A stretch of DNA of 64,000 nucleotides from a virus (IMGVR_UViG_3300021399_000127:1-64000), one strand, 5' to 3'; positions 1,945-64,000 are shown, counted from the first letter of the stretch. Notes: generated by a model not told the origin, from the letters alone. Numbers and translations: made by a program.

Positions 1945-2019
1945 TGCCCTTTGGTGTAACGGCTAGCACAGGAGGCTCTAACCCTCTTAGTCTGGGTTCG
2001 AATCCTAGAGGGGTAACCA
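1945..2019 (+). tRNA. amber suppressor tRNA, anticodon CUA (probably Gln-charged)
   Basis: Complete cloverleaf: acceptor TGCCCTT/AGGGGTA, D-arm GTGT/GCAC, anticodon arm GGAGG-CTCTAAC-CCTCT (CTA at 1978-1980), T-arm CTGGG-TTCGAAT-CCTAG, encoded CCA at 2017-2019. The U1-A72 pair is typical of tRNA-Gln. Confidence 0.96.
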
Positions 2020-38826: not shown

Positions 38827-41800
38827 ATGGCAGGTAAAAATATACGTATACAAAAACCACAGGGATTTGAATAGGATGTGGTTAAACAGGATGCGACCGC
38901 TGTGCGATTTACTCAAGCACAACGGATAAGAGAAAAACAAGCATCTGGAAATTTTAATCAAGCAGACGACGCAGTAGCTAAGAGTGAAGCGTAGTCTGCT
39001 AGATATTACAACGAAAGAGAAAGAAAACGTAGAGAGGCTGCAGAAAACGCTAGAAAGCAAAAACAAAGAGAGATAGAGTTATACGAAAAAGCAGCAAAAC
39101 GAAGACGTGCAGCAGAAAAAAGATTCTGGGAAGACAATTCTGCCGAAGAGGAGCAGAAGCGTCGACAGAAAGAAATGGACGAAGTTTCTGACTATCTTGA
39201 CTGGCTTGAGGAGCCTGAGCGCGAAAAGAAAGAAAAGGAGATAGAAGTCGAAAAAGAAGCATAGTTCATAAAGTGGAAAAATGACACTTTTGGAAAAATA
39301 GGAAGTACTGTAATAGGAGCTACACCTCTTGGATATTACAATCTTCGATCCATGTATTGGCTTAAAAACATGTTTGGAAGTGCCACAAAAAGCGGAACGG
39401 ACACTCATATGGCAGCATTGTCAGACGATTTGTCGGAATTAGAGCTGGACAAAGAAGCGTTAGCATCTCATAAAAGAAGGACAGAGCTCATACAAACCAA
39501 GAATGATCTTTAGTCTCAGTATGATGATCTTCTTCGTACTGTAAACTATAAAAAGAATGCTGGTACTAGCGCATCTTAGCAGGAGATGTAGAATCTTGAG
39601 GATCTTGGATCGCAGATAAACAACCTGCAAGCGCAAATAGACGATGAATAGCTTACTTATTTTGACAACCGGTATAAATCGTCATTTGTAGATAGGGCTG
39701 AGAAAAGCAATGGATGGTGGAGTTGGACTAAAAAGACAGCTGAGAATATAAGAGACGCTATCTTCGATGCAGCAGCTTCTATCACAGTACTCGGTGGAGA
39801 TCAAGACAGAGAACAAGCAAAAAGGGTTTAGTAGCGTAGAGCAGCAAAAAATGCTGAAAAATACGATCAAAACAGAGATTAGTATTTGTAGTCTTTAGGA
39901 TTGGATACACTAAGCCCGACGTTGCTGTACCCTGGAGTCGATGCTATGGATCACAACGAGAAATTAGCTGAAAAATGGTATAGTGATCAAATCGACACAG
40001 AAAGTAAGAAGGTTAGAGAACAGAGAATCAACACCGCTAGTCTGCAGGAAGATTTTAACAAGTGGGCACACGTTGACGATTGGTATAAAAAAGGAGAAGA
40101 GCTACATCAGAATGACAAATTATGGAGTCCTGGTTATTGGCAGTACTGCATGGCTGGAATGATAGGATCGTCAAACAGCTCGCCGTCTCAGATGATAGGG
40201 AACGCTATACAAACCGTCGGCATGCTTACAGGCCCAGAAGGAATGCTGCTTGCTGGTGCAGTATCAACTCCGTTTGATATAGCGGGAGGATTAGAAGAAA
40301 ATAAAACAGAAGCGACTGAAAAGCGTACATAGAACTTTAAAGATTCTATGGAACAGTGGGATCCTGAATTTAGGCAAGCCGTGATTGACGATATGAGAAA
40401 TCAAGCGTCTAAGTATTGGAAAAGATAGGGCATGTCTGACAAATGGATAAAGGAAAGATACTAGAGCGACGATAACTTAATACAAGATGCGTTTTCTGGC
40501 GTAGCAGATGGTGCGTTGAATGCACCTCTTGTTCGTCAGGCGCTGCTAGATTCACAACGTGGTTTACAAGCGTTAAAAGACGCAGATAACATTAGAACGT
40601 TGTGGGAAACTGGTAGAGAGAAAGCACTCCAATATGCACCACTAGGGTGGATGATGAAGAAAGGTGCCCGTGTGCTCAAAAGAGTTGGAGGTAAAGCTGG
40701 ATCTTCTTTTATAAACAACGAAGGCAGACTGACTGTTTCATTTTAGAACAGTGCTAGTGTCGCAGAACGTACTGGACAGAAATACTCAAACGGACTAATG
40801 TCGTCTATGAAAAAAGGTTATTCTGTTGCCCACGAGGCTGCAGAAACTGCTGGATTAGGAGGTCCTGCTGCAATAGCGTCTGGAATTATTGGTGCATCTG
40901 CAAACGGTGCTAGAAAGCTTGTGACAAATATGTCTCCTAGATTGGCTGAATGGAGCGACGATGTTGCAAAGACCCTTTCGTTTAAGTACCAAAAGGTGAT
41001 AGACGTCATGGAAAAGAGCGGGCCTACGAGATTCTTACGGAGGTATGGTTTACCATACATGAAGTATGATCTTGCGCAAAGGTTTGCAGAAATGGGAGAA
41101 GAAGAAGGTCAATATATAAATTCCACAAAAGACTTTTCTACAAAGTACGGATATGACGGAATGACTTTCTTTGAGGGTATTGCAAACGATATGGAAACAG
41201 GATCGAGAATAGCAGAAGCATATCTTGCATTATTAGGAATAGGTCACAGTGAATTGTTAAACGATGAGGAATATTGGAAAAATGCGCAAGGTGGATTTGC
41301 ATTAGGTGCATCTAATCCTGGATTCTCGCAAATAGTTACAGGATACAATGCCGTAATGGGTGCGAAGAACACATGGTCAGCATATGATGCAATACAACAA
41401 TATTCTGCTATAAATCGAGAGGGAGACAGACTTATTCGTAGGTCTAATGAGTAGCTGGCAAACATAATAGTTAATGGTGATCCGAGGTCTGTAGTGAATG
41501 CTTTAGAGAAACAAAAGACGGAGGATTCACGTAGAGAGAATTCTAATTATAGGCAAGAAGACTATGATTACACAATCGAGTCAGCATAGACGATTGCAGC
41601 ACTGCATAAAAATAAAAAAGTACGATCGAGATTAGAAAAGATCGGAATAAAACCTGGCACAAAAGAGTATAATGTAGCCATGGCGGATCTTGCAAACCTT
41701 AGTATGCAAGATCGAGAAAATGATGCCGAAAGACAAGAATTGAATGCGGCATTAGCAGAAGCATATTAGAACAAAGAGTTTATAGAGAACGTTGACAAGC

Positions 41801-44800
41801 TGTTTAAAGAAGCTTAGGATGCTCCTGATAATGTTGCAGAAAGAGCTAGAGCAATTGCGCAGCTTAGAAAGAACATAGAAGAGAATGAGACTAAGATTGC
41901 AAAAGAAAACGGTATAGATACGAATTCTAAAGAATTTAAAGACGCACTATAGGAAAAGCAAAAGGCAATTGAAGAAAAGTTTGTAGAACAGTCAAATGCT
42001 AATTCTCGTGAAAATATAATACAGACGATTAAAGCTGTTAGTACAGGAAAGGCTTTGCTTAGAGCAAAAGCTGAGCACAATACTGCAAACGATCTATTTG
42101 ATTTTATCAAAAATAAAACTGGTGTTCAAACAAAAAGGCCTGACGCAAAATACGTAATTGGCGTTATTGACACACAGTTAAAACAGTTAAAGCAGAATAT
42201 AAAAACAATAGATCCTGAATTCGACACAAAGATGTCGGATAGCGATTTCTTACAATATCTCGAAAGCATTGATATTCCACAGCTGAACACTGATGGATTA
42301 GCAGATTTGGAATTAGCTAACGTGATGTTAACTGCAGACAAAGCAATTACGTCTAATTATTTGCAACAGTTCTATGGTATACAAAACCCATAGGTAGACG
42401 AAAAAACAGGAAAGATTAAAGAATCAGAAGTAGTAAATGATTCTAAATATTCTAGGCGAATAAAAGCCATAATGGAAGCTGACAACACGAATGATAAGAT
42501 AAACTGGCTTGTCGCAGACGTGTTAACGGGAGATGCTGTTACAAAACTTACAGACGAAATAAACAAAGAAGAACGTGAGTTGTTCAAGCAATCTAAAATA
42601 AAACAGGAAGAGATTGCTAAACAAAAAAATTAGGATGTTAAAAGTGGTACTGCAGGAAAACCTGTACCAGAAGATACTCCTGATATAAAAACAGCAGATA
42701 TAGAGAGCAAACCCACTCTGAAGCAAAAGCTTGACAAAAACAAAGAAACGTATAGAAAGAGAAAAGAAAAGGCTAAGTAGCAATGGAGAAAACGTCGTAA
42801 CTCAAGCAGGGGAAAAGTACGTGCTTCTTTACTCGGACCACTTTAGGTTATTGTAGATATAGCTACAGATATAAGTTATCTTGCTGCCGTTGGAGCGTAT
42901 AAGTTCTCTCAATTTGTAGATGATGTTGTAGACATATACGGACAACCAATAACCAGCGAGGACATGGGTTATGCTAAACAATAGTACATGAAGGCGCTAA
43001 TTGCTGCAAGATTAAAAAATCCAGAGATCCTCGACAACTTAAGTACACTCGATGAAATACGTGACTACGGAGTAGTTGATAAAACACCATACATTACTCC
43101 AGGCTTAATAAAACTGGATCAGGAAATCGTGTTGCGAATGCAATTGTCAAATATGATGCAAAACAAGGACACTAAGTTATCTACATATTATGACACAATA
43201 GCAACCGTAGACGGGGTAACCAGAGTGTATACAAACGATGCCGAGTACCAACTACAAATAGACGAGAGTTACAAGAGAGAGGCGAAAGATATAGCTTGTG
43301 AGTTTAAGAATGCTACAAACAACGAATCTGCGTTTTTGACTGTTTTATCAAAATACAATCTTGACAAAAAGTATTTAAAGTACCGAACAGTCGATGGTAT
43401 TTCTGAAATGTTGGGTAGAACAGTTGTCACAAAAGGAATAGAGTTGAATCCTGATATAATGTTTGCAAGTGATATTAGACAATTAGCTATTGCTGTATTC
43501 ACATAGGATTATGACACTATAGACAAACTTGTAGACGCATACAAACCATCTGGTAGAAATTTAACGCCTGCTGTTGACGAGCTTCAAAAATTGTACGAAG
43601 CTATAAATGATGCTGGAATGAATCCAGTATGCACAAACAGCAACATATATGGTATAAATAAGGACGGAAAAGCCGTCTCTTCGCAGCTCGATTTGATTAT
43701 TGTAGATTCTGCAGGGTATCTACACGTTATAGATGTATTGCAATCGTACAGAGATGTACAACAGAGGTGGAATCAACCGCCTGGAATGCCAGCCAGATAT
43801 ACAATTAGTCAAAGAGAAAAAGCTATGATGACTCAATTGACTAGTATTCTTGAGACATTATAGTTTATAAATATAGCAGATGTCAGTTGCTTACCGATAG
43901 TAGGAAATGCTGAGCCACATGTAGAGAAACGTATTCCTGTATACGATTCTCCAGAAACAGAGGTTTCTCAAGATACAACAGATCTCGTATCTAAGATAAA
44001 CGACGCAATAGACGATTACAATCAGTTAAAAGACGTCTGTGCTATCTATGATATTAGTTTTGTACCAATGTAGCACATTGCTGCAACAACACACGATACA
44101 AAAGCCGAACAAGAATCTTATATCACCAGCCTTTAGAGAAAACTCGATGAGATAAATACAACAAAGTTGTACGTGTTGAAAAATATAGACGACACTGCAG
44201 AATCATATAACAAGTATGTGGAGCAGGTTGTTAATGATGGTGGAATACTGTTACCACAAAATGTTGAAGATAAAGTCTCTGTTTTAATAGACTGTTGTCG
44301 TGAACTAGATGCAAAAATGGATGAGGTAGCCAACCTTACTCCAGACGATCAAGTATCCAAAACTGTATACGACCAGTTCTTGGTATGCGTATAGGAAGCA
44401 CAATATGCGTTAAATGATGTATTGATGGATCCAGACGCAAATAAAGCGTCTATTAGATCTGAACAAGAACTTATAGCAGCAGCACTTGAAAAACTAGCTA
44501 CAAATAAAGAATATTTCGGACCATCTGCTGTAAACATAATTAGATGGTGGCTACACAAGTTTGATCCAGTAACACAAAATAACACTGCGTACAAGAGTAA
44601 CAGTGCTGCAGCAGGAATTACTGTTCAACAATACATCGATGTTATACAATCATGGCTTGAGACGTTACGAACACACATAAGACAAGACCTAGATGGTGAT
44701 GTAAAACTATAGCAATGGTATTCTACTCTCTTAAATAATCATTTCACAGAACTCATTTAGAATGCAGAAGCATTCTTGAATGATACAGAGATGGTGCCAG

Positions 44801-47800
44801 TCGACTTTAAAAATGAACTACAAGACTTAATAGTTCGAGCAAAAGGCGCCATATATTACTTTAATGATAGATACAAGGTTTAGCAGAACACTGAAGTTTT
44901 AGGTGAACCTTAGAGCGAAGATGATGCCATTAACAGAATGGCGATACAGTGGATAAGTAAGTACGGGCAATCTGTAGCTTATTCTCCAGCTTTTGATAAG
45001 ATGGTTGGTGGAGCTCAAATGGAGTAGAAGTACAGAAACTGGGCTATGATTTATCAAGAGATATCATAGAAACCAGACTTCTTAGAAAAAGCTATATTTA
45101 GCTTCTCTATATCAAAAGATAGCGACGATATAAAATTGTTTATAAAATACAATGATAAGAGTTGTTATCTTCCGTTTATCACAGATATCTCATCATATCC
45201 TGCCGGATCACTGTCACAAGAAGACATACAGTTAATAGAAACATCCAACAAGGCGAAACGTGACTTCTTTATTCCTAAAATGAAGAAGATGATTCAATAT
45301 GTCCAATCTCATCGTGGATGGAGGATTGAGTTTGGAAAATCATTGAATAAAGGTGAGATAATCTACGATACGGATCCAAATGCTCCGTTACACAATGTAC
45401 AAGAGTTTTTGTTTACAGGTGCTAACAGTAAGGATTTGTATACGGTACGCATGTCTGCAGAGGATGAAATAGGAATCCTCATCAAGCGTAACCCAGGACA
45501 AGCTAATGAGACAGAAAAAGTGTACTGTGGAAAACAGCTTAACACTCCCATTCAGTCTTTCGATATGGATAGCAGAAAAGCTAAGTTATATAGGTTTCAT
45601 GCCGGAGCTCTGTTGTTTAACTTTGATACAGGAAATGGTGATAAGATTCCTGTACTACTAGACAGGGCTACCATAGGAGACAACATGGCAGAAAAGCTAG
45701 TCGACCTTATTTATCAAAAAATGCAGGGCCAGACGTATGCTGACGGATATGGTATAGACGACCTGTTGTCTATGGTTTTATACTTAGATAATCCAAACAA
45801 GCGTGCATCACAGTATTCAAATACTAAAAACAAAATACGAATCGATGTAGCTAGTAAGTCTGTTATAATAGGATCTGAAGCTGGAATTCCTATCACCGAT
45901 AGACAAAAGCTTGCACAGAGACTTTCATCCATGCAAATTGTAGTAGATGCAGAAATGTTGAATGAGAACATGCAGTCTACTACACACAGTGTAATCTCTT
46001 CTGCGAAACAGTATCTGAGATTCTAGGATAAAGTTGAACTTCCGAATGGTATTGTTATAAACAAAGATGATATAATACATTAGAACAGTGATGGTTCTTA
46101 TGGGTCTACATGGTTCGGATTCCTATTACGAAACAACCTTATTGGAACTAATGCTAAAAAAACTGGAGGAAAACAACTTAATATAATAGACCCAAAGCTG
46201 GTTAAGGAAGGTAAGAGTAAAGCAGAGTAGGATGTGGAAGATGCAGAACGACAGAAACAAGCGACTGGTCGACTACAGGCCAATGCTGCAGATTTCTGGC
46301 AAAAATTAAGTCGCGGACCATCATTGCATATGGATGTCACCGATTACGAATCGATTTCAAGAACAGATGCTGAGATTAGTTAGTTCAAAACAGATGCTGA
46401 AAAATATTTCGATCTTGTATTTGGGTCACATGACGACTTGTAGATGGATGATAAAGTGTACCCAGGCCTTGTTCCAGGAACTGTGGCTACGGCATACTGC
46501 ACATCTCAGTATGTATATCTGGCAACGTGCGCTCCAGAATCTGCGAAGTTCCATGAGGCATTCCACAAACTAATGGAACTTGTTTTACCGAACAGTCAAA
46601 GAGAATACTTTTATAAGATATACCGAGAGAAGTACGGCAAGAAAGTAGATCTTAGTGATGACAGAGATGTAGCAGAAGGTCTTACTGAAATGTTCGTAGA
46701 TTATATTGAACATGATCTTAAAGTAAAGAGATCTAAAGGGTTTGGAAAATTATACGCATGGTTTAAAAACATGTGGTTTAATGCTGGATTAACTATGAAG
46801 CTTGGTAGGCGTAACGCGAACGCATTCTATAAACTGTATCAAGACATGAATGCCGGAAAGTACGCAAACAAGCAGGTTGCTAAAGAAAACATAGAACGTT
46901 TCGATAGTGTGTTTGGAACAGAAGAGGGCTCTAAGCTTTTCTATACCGTAGAAGATCCAAAATTAAAAGGTTCGTCTTAGGATTTCAGAGAATTGACCGG
47001 AAAAGCTGATCTGAATGATCTGGTAGAGGCTCTTGGCGTGATATATATAAACTCTGTTGGAATATCTACATCAAACATTTTATTTGCTTAGGAGGTTCTT
47101 GAAACAGCTAAAATAGACGATAGAACAGCTCAGCGAATGCTTGACTATCTAAACAATAAAGTTAAGTTAGACGGAAAGACACTTGAAGAGTTATATCCTA
47201 AGATAGCAGAAGTATTTGAGCCTGAGTATGTAGACACTGATGAAAAAGACAAGGACGGCAATCCTATAAAAAAGGCTACTTATCCTAAGTTTAGGGTGTT
47301 GCAGTCTAGATTGTCAGAATACATATCTGAAACTCTTGGAGCTGATTATCATGGAAAGTTTAAGAATGACGAAGACGACGAGGATGAAGCTGTGCAAAAA
47401 CAAAATATCGATAAGTTTGACAGAGCCTCATACGAATTCAGTAAACTGGATAGTGCATCTCAACGTGTTAAGCTATTCCTGTCTACAATAACAAGAAAAC
47501 TACCAAACGGTTTATATGACCACTCTAAGAATAGAACAGGATATGAAACATTTATACCAGCTAATGAGGTGTTCTCGAGGCTTGTGCATGATTTTGGTGA
47601 GGTTCGATCGTTAGACGAGCTACTTCGAATGATGGAGTAGGCTCAGAACAAGAGTCCTATGCATAAAGATGTCTATGAAAAGTTTAAAAAAGCAATAGAA
47701 GACATGTACACGTTTGATGACAATGATAAACTTGTTGTGGATTATGACAAAGAGCAATTCGCAATTCAGTTCTACACGTGTATAAAATCACAGGATATGA

Positions 47801-50800
47801 ACTTCGTGCTGGCTAGAACTAAAACTGACAACAACAGAAAACATACAAACATTATTAGCGCCGGATCAGAAAGAGATGCTATAGCATATCCTAAGATGTG
47901 GAATTCTCTACTTACATCTGGTTAGGTTTCTATATTTAGTAGTGTAAGAACTAAACAAGGAGACTTATAGATAGTTAAAGGACATGAAAACGACTTAAGA
48001 GACGTTGCTGCATTCTTTAGATCTGCAGAAGCAGTTTCGGCCAAAGGTGGATAGATAGAGATTGATGGCAAAATGGTGGATGCGTCTACTCCAGAAGGAT
48101 TTGAACAGTTTAAACAAGAGATTGTAAAACAATTACATCGAATCGGAATAACATTCCCTTATGATGCTCTTGTACACATGTTGGAAGAGCAATTTACAAC
48201 ACCTGAATATGGAGGAAACTCAACAGAAGGTTTGTACGCATGGTTGACCCAACGAAATACTGCGTCCATCACGCCGTTCTTACAAGTTCTTGAATCATGG
48301 GTAGACAAAAATGGAAATGTAAATTCTGAAGTATCAAAGAAAGGCTACACATAGACTGGTTTCGTAAAAGCGCTTGGAAATGCGTATAGCAGATATACAA
48401 AAAGTACAACTCAGAGTATGGTGCAGGCGTTAAATGGAAAATAGTTATATTCTGTGTCTCAGAACTCATCACTGTCACACATAATAAATGCATTAAATAC
48501 GCACGACAAGAACAACTACATCATACAGACATTGAGTAGATTCTCATACAATCTTTTAGATGAAGGTGGGCTGTTCTCTGGATCTATGATTCTTAAGGAA
48601 CTGATTACTAACAACAACTCTACGATGCATTTAAGACTTGCAACACATATTGGTTCCAGAACAGACAATAGTGGCGATTATGGTACTGAATATTCTGAGG
48701 CACCCGAAGTCGACGACTACATGGCAAAATTAGCCTTCCTTTAGAGTGGTTACATTGTACCTTGTACATTCGCAGATAAAGGAACATACCAGGTTATACA
48801 AGGTGTCACATTGCCTGGAATGCAGTTTACAGAGCATTAGGATTCAAACGGAAACACTGTTGTAGATATAGCAAATGTACCTACTATAAAGAAATACGAC
48901 GGAGAGTTTGTAATCATACCGTCCAATGCTGTTCTTGACAGGATGTTGGAGTATGCAAGAACGGAATACAGTGCTATACAGCAATGTATGGTTGATTTAG
49001 GATACAAAGACATTCCCGGATATAATGGTGTAAAAAGAGATCCAATACCAGAGCGTGCAAAGATAAAGAATTACCATACTAATAATGGTGATGTAGAACC
49101 AAATGGTACAAGATTCTTATCTCTAAAACAAATAGTAGTTCCAACCAAAGATGGGCTGAAGACGATAAACCTCAACGACCCGAATAAGTCTAGCGTTGAA
49201 TTGCTTAAAAAAGCGTATGATGAGTTCTTCTCTAAAGGTCTCGATGAACAAAGAGAAATAATGGCATTAACTCTTCACGTACAAACGAAAGAGGCTGTAG
49301 ATTTCGCATTGTCTCGTGGTATCGTGGAAAGCGATAACATTACCATGATACAGAACGGACAGACTGTTGTTGCAGTAGATTCTACAGATCCTTCGAAGAA
49401 GTTAGAGACACTTGTAACAAAACATCTGGACGAACTATAGATAGCTACGTTAACAGAGGCTATTGTTAATGCTAAAAAATGGGGAAATAATATAGCTGAC
49501 TCACAAAAAAGAGAAGCGTATAGAAATGTCGCCAAATCGTTAGCGATAGCAAGTATTCTTGAAGATGCTACTGTTAAGTAGATTATGTCTATAGAGGAGT
49601 GTTAGAGATTGTTCATAGGACATCCTGGTATGTTCAAAGTGAGATACAACAAGAGTGAAAGTAGAATAGCTGATGATACGTTCGACATACAGAAGCGTAT
49701 CGGCGGTATTGTCTCTACTGGTGACGACAACTACCTAAACGACGCACGTGGATTAAGAAGTGAATATCGTTGTGCAGAATTCAAAGACCACGAAATAGGA
49801 CTCCATGCTGATGTAATATCTCAACTCGAAGATGCGTTCGAAGAGTCTGCTACAAAAGATTTGTTGGCTTAGATTCTTTCAGAGCAGAATAAGGAAAATC
49901 ATTATTACGACGAAGAAAGCCCTTATTATGTTTTTGGTCTTAAGAGGAAAGAACTACAAAAAATAATAGACGAATTACCTGAAAAAGATCAAAAACGCAT
50001 CAAAAAGGCTTCTAAAAAAGCAAAAGAGTGGGCCTAGGCGTACTCTAAAAAAATAAACGTAGCTGATGGTGCAGCATACATAACAGACGAAATGTGTGAG
50101 CTTATGCTCAGAGAGCGAGGAGCAGACAATGAGAATGTTAAAAAAGCATTCGAGATACTAAGAAGTGAAGACTCTGAACACTCATGGACAGAAAAAGCTG
50201 AAGCATATGAACTGATATACGAGTAGGCTGCAATTGTTGCAACTAAATATACGGCATATGGTGTCAGACCACATACTGTATCAGACAAAGACGGTAATAT
50301 ACAAAAAGTTTCAGATGTAGCTGTACCATATTACAATAAGTTTGCGTTGTTCCCAATCTTCCCTTGTCTTGCAACAGGGCCTATGAAATGGGTCTACGAG
50401 AAGATGAAGAACGAAAGAGTAGACATGTTGTTTATGGATTCTGCAGTTAAGGTTGGTTCAGAAGGAGCTATCGAGTACGATCCAAAGGCGTTAGATAAAC
50501 CATTCAATGTGTATACGCAACATATGGGATTCCTACGTAGGCAGCTTAACACAGATCCTGAAGAAGGTAATCGTATTGCTATCGGAACGCAGATGGTAAA
50601 GATTGTATTATCTAACTTAAGGTTAGATAGACAATACGGAGACATTAATGGAATTGAGCTTCTCACCTATTTTATGGAAAACATAAAACTATTATCTATG
50701 ATTGGTGAAAACGAAGTTAATGAAATGTTCTTCACCGATGGAGAAATAGATAATAAGAAGCTTAGTGAGTTCTTGAAGAGAGAGCTTTCTAGTAGAGGAG

Positions 50801-53800
50801 CAAATAACGCTGTACTTTCTGCAACAGATGTTGTATACAATGAAGACACAGGTAAGTTTGAGTTTGTTATACCTATGGCTGCTACAGCTGATGCTAGGTG
50901 GATGGAATCTATAATAAGGTCTACTGTTTGTAAACGTGTTGTAGACATCACAACACCAGGAGGAAGCTTTGTTCAGAGGTCTGTATTTGCGATAGAAGCT
51001 GAAGATGGAGAGTCTTAGATCTTAGGCGACGATAGTCCTTACTATCATGGTCAAGAGTTGAAGATGATAAACGAGCACGGTTCAATGGATTCTGTAATAA
51101 GTATAGACTATTTCTAGGACATGATACCGCCTCATATAAAAGAATTTAAAGCTCGTAGACAGTGGCTTATCGACAACAGAATAATAGGACCTGATGCTGA
51201 AACAGCTACTGTTGCTTACCGTATTCCTACTCAGGCACAATCTTCGATTCATGCACTACGATTCATAGATGTCTTACCTGCTACACAAGCAGCTATCGTT
51301 CTTCCTAAGGAGTTTACAAAAATAACAGGATCTGACTTCGATATCGACCACCTGTACCTTGCAACAATGAATTATAAAAAGGTAAAGGAGGATATAATAA
51401 CCGGAGGAGACGAAAACATTACTGGTGAATGGTTATCTCGTGAACCTTATGATTTGACAGAGAAACAACAGTGCGAAAACAATATCTTAGGAGTTATGAT
51501 AAAACTGTTATGCGATATAGGCAATTCTATGTCCTCGCTGTATAGATCAATTGATAACGATACAGAGTTACCAAAAAGCATAGCAGACTAGATAAAACCA
51601 AGAAAGGAAGATAATAAGAAGCACTTGCCGTATAATTTCGGAACTCTACACGAACAAGTTAGACGTAAGAGTGACTATATGACAGGTAAAACTGGAATTG
51701 GACCGTTTGCATTGAATGTGACGTCACACGTTCTTACATATCTGTACGAGGTCGAGTTTAACAATTCTAAGTTTACAAAGAACACAGATATTAAGAGTTT
51801 GCATCATTTGTTTGACCATGATGACAATTATGTATCATCGTGGATATCAGCGTTTATTAATGCACACGTAGATATAGTAAAAGACCCATGGATAAGTAAA
51901 CTGAACGTAAATCCGTTTACATACAACCATCTTTCGTTACTAGTTCGTAGTGGCGTTGGAAATTAGGCTTGTTGGATGTGTGCACAACCGATAATAAGAG
52001 ATTTAGCTGCAGCACAACAACAAGCACAAAGTGAGATACTTTCAGATGGTGGAACGTCTAAAGCTAAGCGCAAACAAGAGTTGTTTGATGCCGTACTTAA
52101 GAAGTATGGAATAACAATGTCGTGGAAAGAGCTGCAGGCTTGGGGTAAAAACAGGAATAATGTTGATGCAAGAATCGCAGCTACAAATAGTGTTTTAAGA
52201 TATCGTACAGATGAGCTTATCGACCAAGCAATTAACCCTGACAACATAAACTACTCTTTGCAGAACGATGTTGTAAAAGCATTCGTCGCACTGGAGCCAT
52301 ATGCACAGGGTTTGAGCAATCTTCTACAGTATACGAAAGTAGATACTCGTAAGTATGGAAAGAACTTCATCCAGATGCGTTGCTATTATGAAAAGTACTT
52401 GAACGCTTTCTATGGTGATAACGATCATACAATCTACAATATCGACAGTGTTCATAGAATGCTAGAAGGTAGCTGGATAGACCAGAAAACAAGATCTGCT
52501 ATACAATTACCGTTATATATAATGAGTCAACAGACGTTTGACGCCAACAAATAGTTCTACAATACTATATATAAATTATGTTGGGCTATTACTCAAGACA
52601 GATCGTTGTTTACCGAAGATCTAATGGAGGCTGTTTCGCAGCAATACAGAACAGCGATAAAACTCAAGTATATGCACGAATATGCAACGCAAGTTCTCGG
52701 AATGACTGATAAGGATATTCGAATGCTGTTCTTTGGAAAAGATCAAGACGGATCACGTTCTATGGCGTCTAGATTAAATGGATTAAAGGCAGCCGTTAAA
52801 ACGTATCCTGAATACCAAAGACTTGCTAACAACTATCTTATAGAAAAGTTATTGCCAAAAACCAGAGAAGATGATACTATAACATCTGAAGGAAAGTTGG
52901 CAAAAAAACCTATGTTCATAACAATATCTCAAGATGTCAACAACGAAAGAATGAATGAGAACGCGTTCTCTGATGCATGGGTTGAGTTACTTAATGACGA
53001 AGATCCTTATGTTAGAAAATTTGCAGAAGATCTTGTTGTTTATGCAATGTACACATCTGGAGAATATCAGGGATTTGATAAGATTGCAAAACTTATTCCA
53101 CCAGAATGGTTGCGTGGCGATACATAGAAGACACCTGTTATAATAGACGGAGTTGCTAACAACTCATTCTCTGATTTTATAAAGCATGCTCTTACGTCAT
53201 CATATGCTCAGAGTTTAGCTAGCAATGATATGTAGAACTCTATAGTATCACACCTTCAAGACAAATTCTTTATCGTACAAACTATACCACAGCAAACAGC
53301 AGATGGAAAATAGAACTTCTTGTCTGTAGATACTGACAGGTCTGTCTTAATAGGCTCATCTGAAGTGTTGGATGAAGATGGAAACGCTCCTACGTTTATA
53401 AAGGTTAAAAAGCGTTACGCTTCTAACAAGAGACAGTCTTCGTATAATTTGTACAGATATGTTGGTAGCAATAATGGTTTTCCAATATATGTGTATTGTA
53501 AAAGTGTTGGATACAAGAACGGCACCGAGAATATATATGAGTACTGGTTCGATATGTAGTACGAGGAAAATGACAGTAAAATCTCTAAGAAGCAGAACAA
53601 GTTTGAGGATACACGACGTATAGTGCTTTAGGCGATTAACGATCTGTTTGATTATACATACAGCGGCAAGAAAGAATCGTTAGATTAGTTCTTTGAAAGA
53701 GCGTCGGTCTATGCTTCTCAGGTATATGATAAAATAGATCCTAACGGTGGTGTTCAAATGCCTAGTTTGGTTAGAAAGAAGAGCGTATGGGTTAAAGCTA

Positions 53801-56544
53801 GAAGTAAGTACTCAAGAGAGTCTGTTGAGAACGATCCTAAAACTCTATATATATTCACAGATAACACAGATAGAACATCTGGTGGTGTACAATACGGAGA
53901 CGGATGGTATAAACAGAAGTATGGTGCAGGAGGTTTCGGAAGTTATAGTAATCCGACTACAGCTCAAATTCGTGGACTCGATAATGCTGCTCCTATCAGT
54001 ACTATGAGATATATGTATTCTAAACACGGGTTTACACATCCTGGAAAAGATCCTAATAGTTTGGCTAGGTGGCATGATTCAGACTTCGAAGAGTTTAAGA
54101 AAGTGTTTGACGACGAGATAGCTCAAATAAAAGCATTGTGGGACACTGGACGATTTGAAAAGATTGTATCTCCACAAGGTGATGGTTTCTTCGGAAGTAG
54201 ACTTACTGATATAAGTAAGGCACGTACTCCTAAGATATACGAATATATGAATCAAGAGTTCGAGAAATTATATCAGTATGTAAATAGTGGTTCTAGTAGA
54301 CAGACAGAAAGTGTAGACACAAACACTACATTCGAGTATGCTAGAACGGCTGATGGAAAACCTAACTATGAGGTTTCTTCAAGAGGAGATGCTAGATTCT
54401 CTGCTATGAATGCTACATTTGCTCCTGGTACGACATTGTTTGGTCACGACGTTGGTGGTAGAACAATAGAATCTGTATATCAGCATGGTGTTAAACAAGG
54501 AGACTGGTCTACTGATAACAACAACAAGACTGGTGCTCCAAAAGACAAGACTATAATAACTGGAAATACAGAGGATGACAGCTATGTTCAAGGATATCTC
54601 CCATTGTGGGAAGAATGGGCTAAGCAAAATACACAGTTGATGTAGGAACTTAGACAAAACGCTAGTGGTAAGGTTCTCACTGATATGTTTGCATCAACAG
54701 CCGTATCACAAGCTAGAGCTTTGGCTGACATTTTAAATAACAATCAGTCTGCTACTTCATCTGCTACAAATACACTCCATGGAAGACAAGCTACTCATGA
54801 GGAAGAACTTGCTACGTTGAACAGTGGTAAGACAATATTGTCTAATGAGGAGCTTGCTGCTTGGAATAAGAATGGTGTTGGAAAGAATCCTAGAATTCTT
54901 GTGGCTACAGAGAGAACTGATCCTGCATTCCATTCAAAAGAGATAATAGACATCATAAACGGAGTAAAAGGTGTTACTAATAGAAAGTATACCCAAATAA
55001 CCAAAGAAGAATATGATGCTCTGCCTAACGGTCAACGGTGGTACAAACAAGCTACAAAACAGTATTTTAGAGTCGATGTTACAAATCTAAGCAGCAGTGA
55101 TTTTGCAGGATTGTACATCATAACAAAGCATGATGGTCTCCCTATGAGAGACATATTGGCTACGAAAATACCAAAGTTAATACATTTCAGTATTACTGGT
55201 CTCGGTGGTACTACGTATGAACCTGGTGTCATGAAACCGAATGACTTGTTGGATAGAATCGGTGACTATATAAAGCAAGGGTTAGATCCAGACATGATAA
55301 CTGTACGAATAGATCCTATAGTACCTGGTGTAACAACTCCTTCTATGATAGAAAACATAGTCAAGAGGGCTTCTGAACTAGGAATAAAGAGAATACGATT
55401 CTCAATAATGGATGCTTACGGTAACACTGTTAGAAAGATGAACGCTCTAGGATATTCGTTTGACTAGAAGTATCATTGGGATATACAAGACGGTGTCAAT
55501 CGCATGGTTGTAAACGATGATGTCAAAGACTCTATTGTCAAGTTCATGTTGTCAATGAAAGACAAGTACGGTGTTACACTCGGAACTTGCGCAGAAAACA
55601 TTCATGTTGATGGAATATCCAACGAAGGATGTTTATCTGTAGATGGTGTAAACAGAATGCTTGGATCGAACATAGAAGATCGTGGCACCGATAACAATAA
55701 TCAACGAGTAGACTGTTCTTGTTATGGTGGAAAAGTCGACGCTTTGGCGTATGATAAGTATTGTGGAAGTGCGTGTGCCTATTGTTATGGAAAGCACGAA
55801 AACGATGCTGTTCATCAATACTACAATTAGGACGGAACGCTTAAACAAGATAAATTTACAATATCTGGATATACTGACGAACAAACACTTCCACAACAGC
55901 CGCAGACTAATAAGTATGTCAATCATAGTGGTGGAGCTATTGGTTCTGATTACGAATGGGGACAGTAGGGCTAGAAGTACGGAGTAACCTCTAATCATTA
56001 CTATCACGGAGCTAAGACGCCGCACGGAAATATTGAAATAACAGAATAGGAATTCGAAGAGGGGAAACAACATGTAATGATTGCCAACAGGACGTTGCAC
56101 AGAAGACCTGAACGATATTTGAATTTGTTAGCTAGAAACTACATGCAAGTAAAAAATTCTGATGCTGTATTCGCAATAGGACATCTCGTACGAGGAATAG
56201 TTGACGGAGGTACTGGTTGGGCTGTACAGATGGCAATAGATGATGGAAAACCTGTATATGTATACGATCAACAGAGATTGCAGTGGTATAAGAATATCAA
56301 CGGTCAGTGGTCTGAATCAGAAACTCCAACATTGACTACAAATTTTGCAGGAATAGGAACTCGTCAGATAAACGAAGCTGGAAAGCAAGCAATAAAAGAC
56401 GTGTACAGAAAAACGTTCGATGAACAAAATGGTGTCGGAAACAATAATATTTAGAAACCAAGTACCGGATATGCATCGTCTATATTCTCAGAAGAAGAAA
56501 TGAGACTTGGAGAGCAGTATAAAAACATTTGTAAAAATTAGTAA
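38827..56544 (+). CDS. giant single-chain virion RNA polymerase polyprotein (5905 aa, about 76 TAG=Gln)
   Basis: All long + strand fragments from 39901 to 56077 share one frame, and the gaps between them contain only TAG. Two-barrel RNAP motifs: TFADK, NVADG.AYI, SAVKVG, YRIPTQ and catalytic GSDFDID (DFDID at 51334-51348). Also HEAFH at 46552 and C-terminal accessory domains. Confidence 0.93.
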
Positions 56545-56545
56545 T

Positions 56546-59500
56546 ATGAATATTTGTCCAAATTTACATAACAAAAAAGTTAAAGAATAGTTCGAAGAAC
56601 TAGTCTCTGTGTTTGATGAAAATTAGGCGTATTATATTTGGGACAAAACAAACGGATATGGATTAGACTTGGCTCCAAACGGAGCTGAGTCTAAACTATT
56701 CGGTGATTTATTATAGTTTTGTAACGGTAATAGGGCAGATGCTCTTAAGATGAAGGCTACTACGCTATCCAGTAAGTTTCCTAAAGCTGACTCGATCTAG
56801 AAACAAATTGTAGACCACTTAAAGAAGCTGAAGATAAAGGTGCACGGAATAGAAGATATGAAGAAGTATCTTTCTGCTCGTGGATTTAGTTCTTTACAGC
56901 AGTTTATAGGTAAGAAGGCTAGAGCTTAGTTTGAGCAGCAACTTAGAAAAGCACGTCCTGACATGTCTGATGCTGAGATTAAATCAACTCTTGACTTTCT
57001 TCATTCTTTGGAGGACAACAAGGAAAACAATGCTTACATAAAGACAGCAGTGAGGTGGGTGATGAATAGATCGCTCACATTGCCTGAGGATAATACTAAA
57101 GCTCGTTAGGTTTTCGATGAAGCACGTAAAAGACACATAGATGTATAGAAGTATCCTACACTAAGTGCTCTTATTGCTTCTGATGAAATGAAGCCTAAAG
57201 AGAAAGAGAAGCCCAAATTCGATCCAGACAAGGCTAAGACATTCAGCAACAAACGCACAATTACGACAGAAGGTGGTAGAGTATTCACTGTATACGATGT
57301 AGAGAATACTGAAGAAGGACAACGAGAAGTTTGTCATGCTCTTGCTGCTCACTACAAAACATCTCCTTGGTGTTTATCTACATTTACTGCCACAGGAGAA
57401 CCTACTGAATCTGCTAAGTATTACTGGGACCATTATAATACACTTCCAAGAAAGATTGCTTATGAAAATGGAAAGCCAGTAGCTTTTAATAGCGATTATG
57501 GATCCCCTTATAATCTTTCGTTTAGAGGTATGGATGTGGTGTACTACCCGAATTCAGAACGTGGTAAGTATGGATTTAAACTTAACCCTTATGAGCCACT
57601 GGTGCTACAATTGATCCAAGAAGGTATTGTGCGCAATATATTTGACGACCAAGATGATGTCACACCTGTATATCGATTTACAGGTAAAGGAGAACGTCTT
57701 ATTGAGAAATCAGTAAGAGAAGCTTGGTGGGACATGGAAGATAGGTTTGCACAATTGAAGTTGTCAGACAATATTGTAGCCGACCCTTCTAATGGCGGAA
57801 TTGCTCCTGATTTTGATCAAGATTAGGAGTTTGATGACGATCTTTTTCTTCCAGTGGATCCTGATTATGACCCTTATGAGGATTTATTTCAGTCAGAAAC
57901 TGAATATGAACTAATCAATATACTGCAAGACATTGTACTACTAAATTTATATCGTGTAGAGAATTAGGATTATAACTTAGATCCAGTTTGGATTGTAAAC
58001 GAGTATTCAAATATTTATTTCCAAGAATTAATAGCACAAATATCAGACTTTGACTGGGGAAACCATCGTAATCCTGTAGAAGCCGCTTAGAGTATCGTAT
58101 AGAATAACAACGTAGAGTAGCATATACGTGAAACGATAAACGAATATTATACTAGACTACCTCAGCCAGCACCACCACTACAAAACGGACTTACTGAGCC
58201 CATACCTGCTCCTGTAGCTCCTGTAGCACCAATCGACTTAGGTCCAGGTTTGCCTTTCTATCTCACATCTAGTGGTGAGATATACGGTTTTGTAACCCTT
58301 GAAGGCGATATCTATCTCGATGAAAATGTAATATCTCCAGAACATCCTATCCATGAGTATACTCACTTATGGGACAGAGCTGTAGCAAAAAAGAATCCAA
58401 AGCTTTGGAAAAAAGGTGTAGAGTTAATGAAGAAAACCGATCTGTGGGAAGAGATTCTTTTCGACAAAAACTATGGCAAAAAGTGGACGTCTAATCCAAA
58501 TATAACACCTGAAGAATTAGAGTTTCTTGTTGCATCAGAAGTGCATGCTAGAATTGTTGGAGAGAAAGGTCAGTAGGTATTAGATAGAATAGCTAAACAG
58601 AAAGGTGGAGATAGTATAGTATCAAAACTTAAGGAATGGGCATTCCAGTTCTGGAAAACTATAGCATAGACTTTTTCTCCATGGACACAAGAACAGATAG
58701 ACAGATTATCTTATGGAGATTTTGTAAATATAGTACTCAGAGATTTTTCTCAAGATAAAAATGTTTTGGAGCTTGATGAAAACGGAGAAATGTCTGCACG
58801 AAATGTAATTTGTGCCGATCCGTTCTATGGAAGATCTGTTACAAGCAGCCAACAAACAAGGTGTATAATCAGTAAGCTGTAGTAGCATTTTGGAGACCTT
58901 ATATAGTATAATGACAAAACAAAGAGCTTTTATTTATACTATTAGAACCATCCTAGTTTTAGAAAACAAAACGCACTTACAGAAGTTCAGCTCATAGATC
59001 AGGTCATACAATATTGTAAGTATTTCTTTGACAAGATACCTATAATTCGACGTGTTGGTTCAGTGTTGAATCCTAATACTGGTAAGTTTGAACCGCATCA
59101 ACAACCTGCAATTCTTGGATTTGCTCCTAATAAAAGCATATTCGACAACTGGATAGATAAAGAGATGACTCTTTATGACAACAAATGTCTTATAGAACAG
59201 TTCTTAGAGCAAAGATTCCCTGAAACACAGGTACGTTGGATTACACGAGAAGAACAGGCTAGTCACAATTCGAATGCGAACGCTTGGTATGACATTGAAA
59301 ATAATTGTGTGTGTCTTGTTATGGATGCTGTAAAGTCAGATAATATAATAGAAGAGTTCTTACATCCTATAACACTGATGATGTAGTGCTCCAGTCCGTC
59401 TGTATTTGATGACTTATACGATTAGGCTGTGGAGAAATATCCAGAAATCCGTAAGCAGGTGGATAAGTTATATGGAAACGAAGATGAATTTGTAAAACGT

Positions 59501-62500
59501 AACGAGGTTGTCACTAAAGCTCTTTCTAAAGTATTAGACAAGAAAGAGAAGAACAAAAATCGTATAAGCGTAACAGAATCCATATTTAAGGATATAATAG
59601 ATCATATATCTCGTATATCGAATGGCAAGCATCAGATTGATGTAAATAAACTTCCCGATATGACATTGGATTAGTTCGTACAACTTATATGTTGTGAAGA
59701 TGTACAGTTTCTTACAAAAGATGCCGCACAGTATATAGACGAAGTAAAACAAAAACGATTGTATAATATAGCAAATACGCTTGACCCGAATGAGATCCAT
59801 GAACGACTTACTGATGCGATGGAGTCATTACATCGATAGTTGTCTAGTAAAAAAAGAACGTCTATTACTGATACTCGTAGGAAGCAGATTCATGAAACGC
59901 TGAATAAAATAAGAACTGCAGACACTATTGTACTAATGAATGACTTTTTAGGACAAGCTATTGAGAGTCTTGGTATTCCTAATGAGACTGATAATACGAT
60001 TCCTAAAGATTATACTCCAAATGATCTAGACTCACATCCGCAATCTGTGTGGGGAGCTTTACTAAAAGCTAAAGAAAACAATTACGCAAATGTAGATCCT
60101 ATGTTTTTAATGGATGAATTTAGATTTAGTATAGGTTTCTACGAATAGACGATGAAACTTCTCGAAAGTTTTATACATAATACTGGTATCTTAGAGCAGT
60201 ATATGTCTGACCAACAAGCAGGAGAAATACGAGAACAAGCAGATAATCTAAATAAAATTCTTCGTACAGTAAAGTCCTTATGGAGAGACGCTGTGTTTAC
60301 CGTTGGAGACCAAATTGTTGACAATTCTATCGATGAGTTTGTTACAGCAGAAAAACAAGATAAAGAATCTATGAAAATTGTATATAAAGATTGGCTTCAT
60401 AGGAATCTTTATTATGGCGATATTAATCTTGCACAGAAATTGGCAGCCAACTATGGTAGACATCAGAACGGTATTGTAAAAATGGCGTTTACATTGATAG
60501 GAGAAGCTAATACCAAAACATAGTTACGTTCGTACAATGAAGCTGTAGAAATAGACAAAGCGTTCAGTAGATGCAACAATGCTATACGTAAATCTCTTCC
60601 GTTCTCATGGCAAGATATGTTTATGGAACGTGATAGAAAAGGCAGGTATACTGGAAAATTTGCAAGAAAACTCAACTTTGGATAGTATGACCAAGATTTG
60701 GACTAGTTCGTTTCTGAGCTCAATAACAAATTTGATCAGGACTACGGATACCATTATGTATACAATGCGTCTGGAGATTTAGTGCGTTCAGATAATCAGC
60801 AACTAGCAGAAGATGAACCATGGGGCGACAGCATGACTAGTGATGATTGTCCTGTATGTATAAAGTATCTCAACGAGATTAATAAGTGGAAGGGCATTCA
60901 TTGTCACAGAAGATATACTGCTAATTATTATGGAGAAATGTTATCTAGACCGATAACAGCTACTCATAAGCAAGCTGGGGAACCATATGTGGATCTTCCG
61001 CACGGTCTATCTCCAAAAACATACTTTAAGTATAACAGGTTACAAGAAGATATAAACTACATATTGAACGATTGCACGGATCAAGATACTGGTTTTGCTA
61101 GGCCTGAATCACTTGAACCAGAAGATAAACTTAGGCTAGATCGTCTTTAGAAAGAGCTAAGAGATCTAAGTAATCCATTTGAGGACGATGGTTCGTTAAA
61201 GGAAGACGAAAAATATCAGATAGCCATAGAATTATGCTCTTGGTAGACGTGGATAGGTAAAAAGTTGAACACTAAAGTTGACATATAGGCTTTTGAAGAC
61301 GAATGTTCAAAACTTTCTGGTCAAGAGTTGGAAGATTTTGTAAAATACAATTCTTATTGGGGAGTACACCCGCAATACAGTGAGCAAATACCATATGCAA
61401 ATATTCCATAGGACATAAGGGTTCATGAGATGGATCTTAGAAAGTCTGCTTTGTTACGAATGCCTAGTACGACACGTGATTTGTTTAGAGAATTATATCA
61501 ATATAGGTTTAGTGGTGAGTTTTGGAAAAATTGTAGGGACTGCGATCAATATATTGCAGATAACAAACTCAGACAAAATTTAACAACACACGATAGATTT
61601 GCGGACCGGTTTTATAGAGAATTAGTTCCGTATATAGACGAATATGGTAACTACAGAACTGTTACTGGATAGGTAATGACGCCTCAACAGTATGGTGCGC
61701 TTGTAAAGTAGTATAGGGAACATCACGATGATTCGTCTAAACCACTTGTAGTATTGCCTGAATTGTACTCTTTTAAAGATTATATAACAGATCTGTATGT
61801 ACAAGAGGCGTTACAGAACGGAACTATACCTGGATTTAATGATAATGACAACGTACCTGTATCGTTCTCTGGTATGAGCGAAAATGATATACGTATGAGA
61901 GTAGAATAGTTATTCACGTACGTATATAATTATACTGATTATGATGGAACTCCTAGATCTGAAACCAGACCATTGAGTGTATTTGTTACTAATCAACCAT
62001 CCCACAACGTATTTCTTTCAGCAGATAAGGATAATAACGTTAATGTAGACCATGTTGTTATAAATGTACCTATAGGAAGATTTAGCACAAAGGTAGATAA
62101 CGGAAATAATCTCGTAGATGGCGAGTTTGATCCACAGCTTCGTGAGTCAGAACAACCTGTTCGTTTCGATGCAGATGGTAATCTGCTATATGATAACTCT
62201 AAAGCATTTAGTAAGCTTGGTGAAATAGGAACTCCAGATAGGGATCTGTACGAACTTCTTGTCGACACGATGAGAAAGAAATACCTGCAGGCGCATCCTA
62301 ATGCAACTAGGTATGATTATAGGCTACCGTAGATAAACGCATCTAATAGTTAGATATTATCTAGAGCGCTAAGGATAGGTATTAAGGATGCGTTCTCTAG
62401 TGTTATCGAATCAATATACGCAGTACAAGAAAACGATACCGATATGAGAACGGAAGAGTCTTATATTATAAACCCAGACGGTAGTAAGTCTTTAACTCTT

Positions 62501-64000
62501 CCGAGAAGATTTGATTCTTTACTTGAAGATCCGTAGCACATATCTAAAGATGTTGTAGCAGGAGTTAAAATGTATCTGTACATGTCTAATAATTACAAAG
62601 ACATGTAGGATATTGAGGCATAGCTAAACATGTTAGAGTATAACATGAGAGATGATATTAGGCAAACTCCTTTAAATCATAGCGAATATGGTTTTAAATC
62701 TGCAGAGAGATCTGATGAAGTAATGAAACGTATGATAAACACTCATGTATACGAGGATCAGTCAGCATGGGGCGCAGATACGCCAATGAAAGTTGCCATT
62801 AGCAAAATACACAAACAAGTGAGCAAATATCTCGTTTTGCAACTCTTGGCATTTAATGTAATGTCTGTAGCTACAGGTTTTGTTGATCAGATGAGTAGGT
62901 TGTTAACAGTTGCTTTTTCCGGTAAACTATTTTCTCCTATAGATTTCATATATGGACTAGGATCAACTATATACCACACACCAGCTATGATATGGAATAT
63001 GGGCAAGTCATATAACAAATAGGGTGATAAATTGGTAGGAACAATGGCTGCACTTGGAATTGGGGCTGATTACAAAGAAATTGTTGAATATACGTCGAAG
63101 AGTCAGCTTAGAAATGTTGTTGTAAACTCTGCTCTTGGTGCATATTCTATGATGGATTACTATGGTTCTTCTACGGCTCTTGTAGCAATGATGAGACAAA
63201 GGAAGTTTTACGATGGAGGTGTTGTACCAGCTGGGTTTTACACATCATATGAACTTTAGAATAAGCTTAAAGATGCCGGAATGTCCCCAATGGAAGCTAG
63301 AATACATGCCTATCGGTCCAGACTTATGTCACACACTACAATGTGGGGTGCTGTAAAGATAGAACCAGGAGGCAAATTTGTTGTAAAACCAAAATGGTAG
63401 CAATACATAAAGACAAAAGATATATCTCAGCTACGTAAATCTGCGTTACAACAAGGTGCGTTATTTGCTGGTACCAATCCTAAAAACGATAAGCCGTTTA
63501 TAAACATAAACGCACTAGGTATGGCTTTAACCGGCATGCGCGGATGGCTTCAACAGAGTTTATAGTGGCAAGGTCTTTTAGATGGTATATAGGATGATAC
63601 ATCTGTACGGGAGTTTGAAGAAAAAGAAGAGGAAGTCATACGGCATGGTAAAACTACAAAGAAGGTTAAGCTTAAGCGTAAAGGTAGAACGCCTGAATAG
63701 AAGTATAGAAGGTTCTCTTGGAACTTTGAAATGGGAATGCCAGACGACAACGTACTGACAAATGTTGTACGTAGTATTCCTAGAGTAATACGTTCGTTTT
63801 GTGATCTTGTGACATTTAACCTTGGAAAAGCGTCAAAAAGGATATCTTATTCAGAGCGTAAGGCTTGGAGAGCTTTGATCATGTATGTAGCATCTATAGT
63901 ATTGATAGGATAGACGATAAGTCCGTTAGTAGATTGGGCCAATACAGCACCGGCTCCACCTGCATATAGTACAGCCAAAAAGCTTAAATCATACCAGACT
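56546..64000 (+). CDS. giant virion cargo protein, 3'-truncated by the window (2485 codons or more)
   Basis: N-terminal CPN...APNGAESKLF motif. Fragments 57188 to 63731 are in one frame with TAG-only interruptions. Zincin HEYTH at 58352-58366. Confidence 0.85.

Follow-up and report, generated by a model that had tools for sequence, protein, structure and literature searches.

In the gut virome of humans and animals, crAss-like phages predominate, yet little is known of how they get through the first minutes inside hosts of the Bacteroidota type. Here, we analyze the first 64,000 nucleotides (hereafter the window) of a 97.7-kb viral genome with direct terminal repeats, IMGVR_UViG_3300021399_000127:1-64000, in which a giant open reading frame (ORF) with the RNA polymerase motif of this group ends in a tail of four further domains, which we call D1 to D4. 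The question that the locus raises is what such a tail does on a polymerase, and where in the infection it acts. A first-pass annotation, made from the sequence, had proposed an injected genome-protection kit of Macro-like, NADAR-like, radical S-adenosylmethionine (SAM) and SLOG domains. From the analysis below it is probable, with real room for other readings, that the tail is an accessory cassette in the style of polyvalent proteins, made late, packaged, ejected, and acting in the next host before phage gene expression.

The tail is visible as one unit only under an altered genetic code. The genome consists of a + strand block that is TAG-recoded (1-64.6 kb) and a - strand block in the standard code, and ARAGORN finds an amber-suppressor tRNA with a CUA anticodon at 1945-2019 (+). 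When TAG is read as glutamine, window positions 38827-56544 (+) form a single ORF of 5,905 residues with 76 TAG codons in frame; neither TAA nor TGA occurs before the terminal TAA at 56542. Under translation table 11, 53758-56544 splits into four short ORFs (53758-54645, 54685-55467, 55504-55830 and 56077-56454), in line with the earlier statement that the fusion is invisible under the standard code. Eight TAG codons lie within or between the tail domains, so that D2, D3 and D4 are intact only with readthrough, and the homology of these three domains continues through the TAG codons, which led us to reject the separate standard-code ORFs as true genes. In a gut-metagenome relative that is ~91% identical over 55475-56013, CAG stands at the position of the TAG at 55828, and 29 of the 38 changed codons are synonymous, with the amino-acid changes concentrated in the linker between D3 and D4. 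These two observations support glutamine as the meaning of TAG and purifying selection on the recoded frame. At the very end of the ORF (56539-56544) TAG is directly followed by TAA, and the last ‘glutamine’ may double as a leaky first stop.

The product is a predicted crAss-type giant RNA polymerase protein of a gut crAss-like phage. The DFDID catalytic-type motif described for crAss-like RNA polymerases (PMC7886860; bioRxiv 10.1101/2020.03.07.982082) lies at 51334-51348 (+; residue 4170), and eight orthologues share it in the form TG(S/A)DFD(I/V)D. With the 700 residues around it as query, tblastn matches 110 Crassvirales records, including phages of Bacteroides, Flavobacterium and Cellulophaga baltica, and the identification follows from this breadth together with the conserved motif. 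P0129 and P0120 are full-length orthologues, the former covering 4,872 of the 4,977 residues upstream of the tail. Searches with phmmer against PDB sequences gave no match for either the polymerase part or the tail. An HEAFH motif (HExxH, zincin-type; the motif alone was checked) is also found further upstream, at 46552-46566 (residue 2576).

The C-terminal 928 residues comprise four separately folding domains with S/T/Q-rich linkers between them. Two AlphaFold models of the tail have a mean predicted local distance difference test score (pLDDT) of 87.6 and 87.3, and confidence drops at the linkers. All peptides quoted in the first-pass annotation were recovered in the translation with TAG as glutamine, and the limits from profile searches agree with its domain positions within a few codons. 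The profile matches are far above chance (Pfam DUF1848, E 1.3e-18; phrog_9995, E 2.4e-27; phrog_768, E 6.9e-11), and in the families of D1, D2 and D4 nearly all columns that are ≥85% conserved show the majority residue here. Library proteins matching D1 plus D2 at E ≤ 1e-3 number 755, and a Foldseek search of D1 plus D2 against PDB gave no match at E ≤ 1e-3. As for the folds that had been proposed, radical SAM for D3, SLOG for D4 and NADAR for D2 hold up, with nearly all conserved residues in place, and a Macro fold for D1 is at most weakly indicated.

D3 (54883-55842, +) is a DUF1848 domain, a circularly permuted radical SAM domain resembling spore photoproduct lyase (SPL), in line with the original reading. 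It scores 68.2 bits against the Pfam profile (PF08902; cut-off 30.5) and 70.8 bits in a whole-genome scan, has a PADLOC match as well, and is modelled as an SPL/PFL-AE-like partial barrel, the partial TIM-barrel fold of radical SAM enzymes. Seven cysteines (C295, C299, C302, C237, C251, C279 and C281 in model numbering) are invariant across 12 phage and 25 bacterial homologues and kept here, as are TDP, K, EP, RxDP, S..D.Y and QR. The CxxxCxxC motif (CGSACAYC), read directly in the sequence at exactly 55762-55785 (+), is the presumed radical SAM [4Fe-4S] site, and the auxiliary cysteines lie at 55588, 55630, 55714 and 55720. In 26 bacterial DUF1848 proteins CxxxCxxC is likewise C-terminal, and in the PDB chains matched by D3 the matched ranges start past the N-terminal cluster loop; hence, we regard DUF1848 as a permuted radical SAM domain. 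A set of archaeal stand-alone radical SAM proteins (L017-L036) with an N-terminal CxxxCxxC has a (V/I)T(V/I)RIDPI core in common with D3 (tblastn E 1e-10 to 1e-4), a similarity that fits an origin of DUF1848 by circular permutation of an SPL/COG1533-type enzyme.

To our knowledge, no member of DUF1848 has a known function. In bacteria it is a stand-alone gene of ~315 residues, present in 45 of 151 Bacillota genomes, whereas here it forms part of a phage polyprotein; one clade is found with a candidate methylase-reverse transcriptase defence, DRT (UG25) (PMC9226505). The phage type occurs in 48 longer proteins, together with NADAR in 16, DUF7831 in 12 and a PIF1/RecD-like superfamily 1B (SF1B) helicase set in about 20, and also with cpYpsA SLOG, DprA, ART-PolyVal+HD or RNase H. 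These partners, the SF1B helicases among them, point to DNA as the substrate. On a related 99-kb contig (L011 10001-11743) DUF1848 follows a UvrD_C/AAA_30 helicase in an ORF of 580 residues; this ORF lies in a different frame from the polymerase ORF, overlaps its end, and may be the result of a frameshift or a separate gene.

D4 (55912-56421, +) is a YpsA/DprA-like SLOG domain, as had been proposed. Its model has the predicted Rossmannoid SLOG fold, and its glycine-rich loops, GGAIGSD (55930-55950) and GGTG (56206-56217), vary little or not at all among 138 homologues. Pfam gives only sub-threshold matches (DUF6945, E 0.0066; Nuc_deoxyrib_tr, E 0.019), and the PHROG 768 profile matched above is annotated ‘DprA-like’. 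Stand-alone family members without a Pfam assignment number at least 1,464, many of them on contigs >300 kb, and tblastn on phages detects the family in records of very large uncultured phages and in known jumbo phages; the first search for related loci on viral contigs returned D4 relatives only. A D4 homologue with 51% identity also lies inside the virion RNA polymerase (vRNAP) of the N4-like Klebsiella phage Pylas (NC_049444.1), ~985 residues from the N-terminus (L002 8001-8534), and this is an independent fusion of the D4 family to an unrelated injected polymerase. Delivery of N4-type vRNAPs with the genome is established.

D2 (54340-54741, +; phrog_9995) is a divergent NADAR-fold domain that lies outside the Pfam family as now drawn. 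The model predicts the NADAR alpha+beta fold, and three motifs are colinear with those of NADAR: RFSA...F with SNF...F, TIExVYQxxxK with SxEqxFQxxK, and QNPxLxxxLR...LTD with QNPxxxxxLxxTGxxxLTH, the last of which reads QNPx...L(T/V)(E/D/H) across T4 AdfN and DarG1-type NADARs. The glutamate (54469), the Tyr-Gln pair, the lysine (54493) and the aspartate of LTD (54682) are each kept in 93-98% of 60 homologues, and D2 is probably catalytically competent. NADAR catalysis uses a glutamate and a lysine seven residues on (E-x6-K, in one helix), with a third position that is Glu in YbiA-type, Asp in DarT1-associated and His in phage NADARs (PMC11543638); in a weak alignment the D2 aspartate would fall at this third position. 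Other comparisons returned little: a global hhalign of D2 with NADAR was unsuccessful and the local match weak, the D2 profile had only a chance match among PDB sequences, Atlas gave no usable match, and the D..WG motif of T4 AdfN and DarG1-type NADARs is absent. Architecture provides a separate line of support. In a set of 150 representative proteins with D1 or D2, D1 occurs with D2 in 16 and with a canonical gp30.3-type NADAR in 20, often directly adjacent, and D2 and a canonical NADAR are together in none (0/150). Members of the D2 family (P0086, P0131, P0139 and ~30 others) have insertions of ~30-290 residues between the YQxxxK helix and a SYxxGYLPLW motif, and in some cases, such as P0139, an entire extra domain is inserted within D2.

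D1 (53803-54285, +) is a member of DUF7831 whose alpha/beta fold weakly resembles Macro. It scores 27.4 bits against the Pfam profile (PF25176; cut-off 27), where the D1 domains of relatives reach 31-35 bits, it maps to DUF7831 clusters in Atlas (score 0.95), and Foldseek on viral models (BFVD) places it with DUF7831 proteins of crAss phages, other phages and giant viruses (E 3e-16 to 2e-5). The first-pass annotation had tentatively called this domain Macro-like. A domain is indeed present at that place, but there is no Pfam match to Macro (PF01661), an hhalign comparison of 78 D1 with 25 Macro sequences gave a probability of 0.2%, and its macro-likeness is unproven. A rhodanese/DUF4326-like identity, hinted at by weak BFVD matches, was rejected, as that fold is missing from the best PDB matches. 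A recurrent domain without a Pfam match, VFVFGSNxEGRHGxGAA...SYALPTKD, adjoins D2 or D3 in P0058, P0162, P0139 and P0003, and its first motifs align with DUF7831 motifs in MAFFT.

The tail is not a fixed set. Among the same 150 proteins, 90 are ≥1,500 residues and 50 are >3,000 residues long, and the four domain types occur together in them in many positions and orders, such as D1-D4-D3-NADAR in P0065; in relatives, canonical gp30.3-type NADARs take the slot of D2 next to DUF7831. The first-pass annotation had suggested surveying domain swapping at this position, and the orthologous polymerases do end in differing sets: NADAR and D1 (P0129), D2, D4 and D3 (P0120), D1, NADAR and D4 (P0153), D2 and D1 (P0024), D2 alone (P0042), or D1 alone (P0062 and P0064).

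How such a cassette would work can be set out as a course of events. The polymerase protein would be made late in infection, because its gene lies in the TAG-recoded late block. By homology with gp66 of phi14:2, a crAss-like RNA polymerase that is virion-borne and delivered with the DNA (PMC7886860; bioRxiv 10.1101/2020.03.07.982082), it would then be packaged, and be ejected together with the DNA when the next host is infected. The likeness to gp66 and to N4-type vRNAPs consists of the DFDID motif, the homology across Crassvirales giant ORFs and the D4-type SLOG domain of Pylas; the present protein differs in being far larger, in having extra N-terminal modules besides its four-domain tail, and in being too diverged for a PDB sequence match. 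Once in the new host, the tail modules would refold, D3 would have its iron-sulfur (Fe-S) cluster reloaded, and all would act ahead of any phage gene expression, with a presumed anti-defence effect. D2, with its habitual partner D1, might take adducts of the adenosine diphosphate ribose (ADP-ribose) type off the bases of nucleic acids or cleave molecules derived from ADP-ribose, D4 might bind or cleave nucleotide signals derived from nicotinamide adenine dinucleotide (NAD), and D3 would attack a DNA lesion or adduct by radical chemistry.

Several points weigh against the injected cassette. We know of no function for DUF7831, and the macro likeness of D1 is not significant. D4 is without the LOG-type PGGxGTxxE catalytic motif and may bind its ligand only. 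For D2, the fold and the E..YQ motif named in the first-pass annotation are present, but Pfam NADAR (PF08719) gives no match at E ≤ 1 while the canonical NADARs of relatives (P0074) do match, the lysine is offset by one (+8, not +7, from the glutamate), and the aspartate is aligned to the third catalytic position solely through a weak hhalign match (6.9%). Bacterial DUF1848 genes have varied neighbours (Cas6, GH18, NagB, RhuM, MCP and others), and no conserved gene context points to a substrate. Virion presence and ejection of the polymerase tail rest on the late-block position and on the literature on crAss-like vRNAPs, and a [4Fe-4S] radical SAM domain threaded unfolded through the phage tail would lose its cluster and then need the host Fe-S machinery.

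A more specific version of the injected cassette, which we judge improbable, has it work in cis with the polymerase as a transcription-coupled eraser: the NADAR-type domain and DUF7831 would strip ADP-ribose-type adducts from the opened single-stranded DNA, and DUF1848 would remove a lesion that resists hydrolases. If this were true, early transcription would proceed on DNA just modified by host DarT-like enzymes, and DUF7831 and DUF1848 would obtain their first functions.

The same domains could also serve the cell in which they are made, by cleaning or repairing progeny DNA before packaging or by degrading NAD-derived abortive-infection signals, with the fusion to the polymerase meaning late co-expression only. 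The position of the ORF in the TAG-recoded + strand late block implies that the folded, cluster-loaded enzyme first exists late, an Fe-S domain is ill-suited to unfolded passage, and relatives fuse DUF1848 to SF1B helicases that act on DNA. Nevertheless, we consider a producer-cell role rather unlikely, given that these domain types are typical of giant proteins of the polyvalent kind that are predicted to be delivered with DNA (PMC5512222, PMC9503650), that the injected N4-like vRNAP also has a SLOG domain, and that ADP-ribosylating defences act early, before any late protein exists. The two roles can both hold.

Tethering to an RNA polymerase could instead suggest housekeeping of transcription or nucleotides, such as the processing of NAD-capped or damaged ends of the RNA that the virion polymerase makes, NAD/ADP-ribose salvage or RNA repair. 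A viral survey connects NADAR, Macro and SLOG with RNA repair and with molecules derived from NAD caps as well (PMC9503650), and YbiA, a NADAR of E. coli, is a metabolic N-glycosidase (PMC11543638). The very different subsets, or single domains, held by orthologous polymerases argue against a core transcription role; the same modules occur at arbitrary positions in many proteins without similarity to the polymerase core, and their frequent partners are DNA helicases, which makes this explanation quite improbable. Least probable of all, to the point of being very hard to credit, is that the domains are inactive relics serving as bulk, spacers or an internal capsid or ejection scaffold. Giant ejected proteins do hold much non-enzymatic mass, no chemistry is known for D1, and ligand binding may be all that D4 does, yet the family-conserved residues are nearly all kept (the seven cysteines of D3, the Glu, Tyr-Gln, Lys and Asp of D2, and the glycine-rich loops of D4), and in the metagenomic relative substitutions in D3 are mostly synonymous, with the amino-acid changes clustering in the linker. 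Both the relic and the housekeeping explanations fit the variable content and conserved residues less well than the injected cassette does.

Beyond D4, the protein ends in a stretch (56422-56544, +) composed of a disordered segment, an amphipathic helix (538-553 in model 2) and ...NICKNQ, with a cysteine at 56530 before the TAG-TAA end. The terminal sequence, ...EEMRLGEQYKNICKNQ (56480-56544), thus carries a C-terminal cysteine tag. A cysteine is found within the last eight residues in 75 of 150 related giant proteins (among P0024-P0173), compared with 2.6% expected. All orthologous polymerases bear such a tag (...KKYCKGGN, ...KKIICK, ...RKQC), and among the long + strand, late-block ORFs of this genome only the polymerase does. 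The tag could be an encapsidation or anchoring signal. Directly downstream lies a second giant recoded ORF (window 56546-64000; genome 56546-64582) of 2,678 residues with 48 TAG codons and DNDMNF-type acidic repeats at its end. Pfam and PHROG scans of this ORF and of the rest of the polymerase ORF gave no match. Its counterpart in two related contigs (L010 and L011) carries ART-PolyVal, which was searched for in this genome and not found.

The first-pass annotation had put the tail forward as its best candidate for an undescribed system, a claim that has to be narrowed. Polyvalent proteins of phages and conjugative elements are known (Iyer, Burroughs, Anand, de Souza and Aravind 2017, PMC5512222), and the present protein resembles them in being a giant polypeptide with several enzymatic or effector domains that are shuffled among relatives, in its late or virion gene context and predicted co-entry with DNA, in its upstream HExxH motif, and in the ART-PolyVal of the relatives’ neighbouring giant ORF. 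It differs in its carrier, a predicted crAss-type two-barrel virion RNA polymerase, and a term search of PMC5512222 returned neither radical SAM nor SLOG nor NADAR. A phage guild of Macro, NADAR and SLOG domains, co-occurring, fused and often virion-packaged, is likewise known and predicted to act against ADP-ribose-based immunity (Iyer et al. 2022, PMC9503650). Its members share with the tail the fusion of NADAR-type and SLOG domains, a third alpha/beta partner, and proposed virion packaging and early deployment. In that paper most of these domains form separate proteins in myoviruses and jumbo phages, and crAss phages go unmentioned, whereas here the third partner is DUF7831 and not a demonstrable Macro, the NADAR clade is invisible to Pfam, and a DUF1848 radical SAM domain is included. 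The phage NADAR AdfN (gp30.3) of T4 defeats DarTG1 (PMC11825919). Published crAss genomes, too, hold such fusions under odd ORF names: giant polymerase ORFs (NC_055901.1, NC_055892.1, NC_055896.1, NC_055872.1 and others) are titled by whichever accessory domain scored, as ‘DprA-like DNA recombination-mediator protein’, ‘DNA helicase’, ‘exonuclease V’ or ‘nuclear pore complex protein-like protein’, which masks their polymerase identity. In the literature searched we found no description of a crAss polymerase as the carrier, of regular guild membership for DUF1848, of the pairing of DUF7831 with NADAR, or of the Pfam-invisible NADAR clade.

The locus provides a testable context for three uncharacterized families, namely DUF7831 through its habitual pairing with NADAR, the NADAR clade unseen by Pfam, and DUF1848, found repeatedly alongside NADAR, SLOG and SF1B helicases in phages and, in bacteria, alongside a defence reverse transcriptase. 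Whether an Fe-S radical enzyme could be delivered through a phage tail is a mechanistic puzzle that the locus also poses. For crAss-like phages, a swappable cassette on a protein that enters with the DNA would be a compact record of the host defences met by each lineage.

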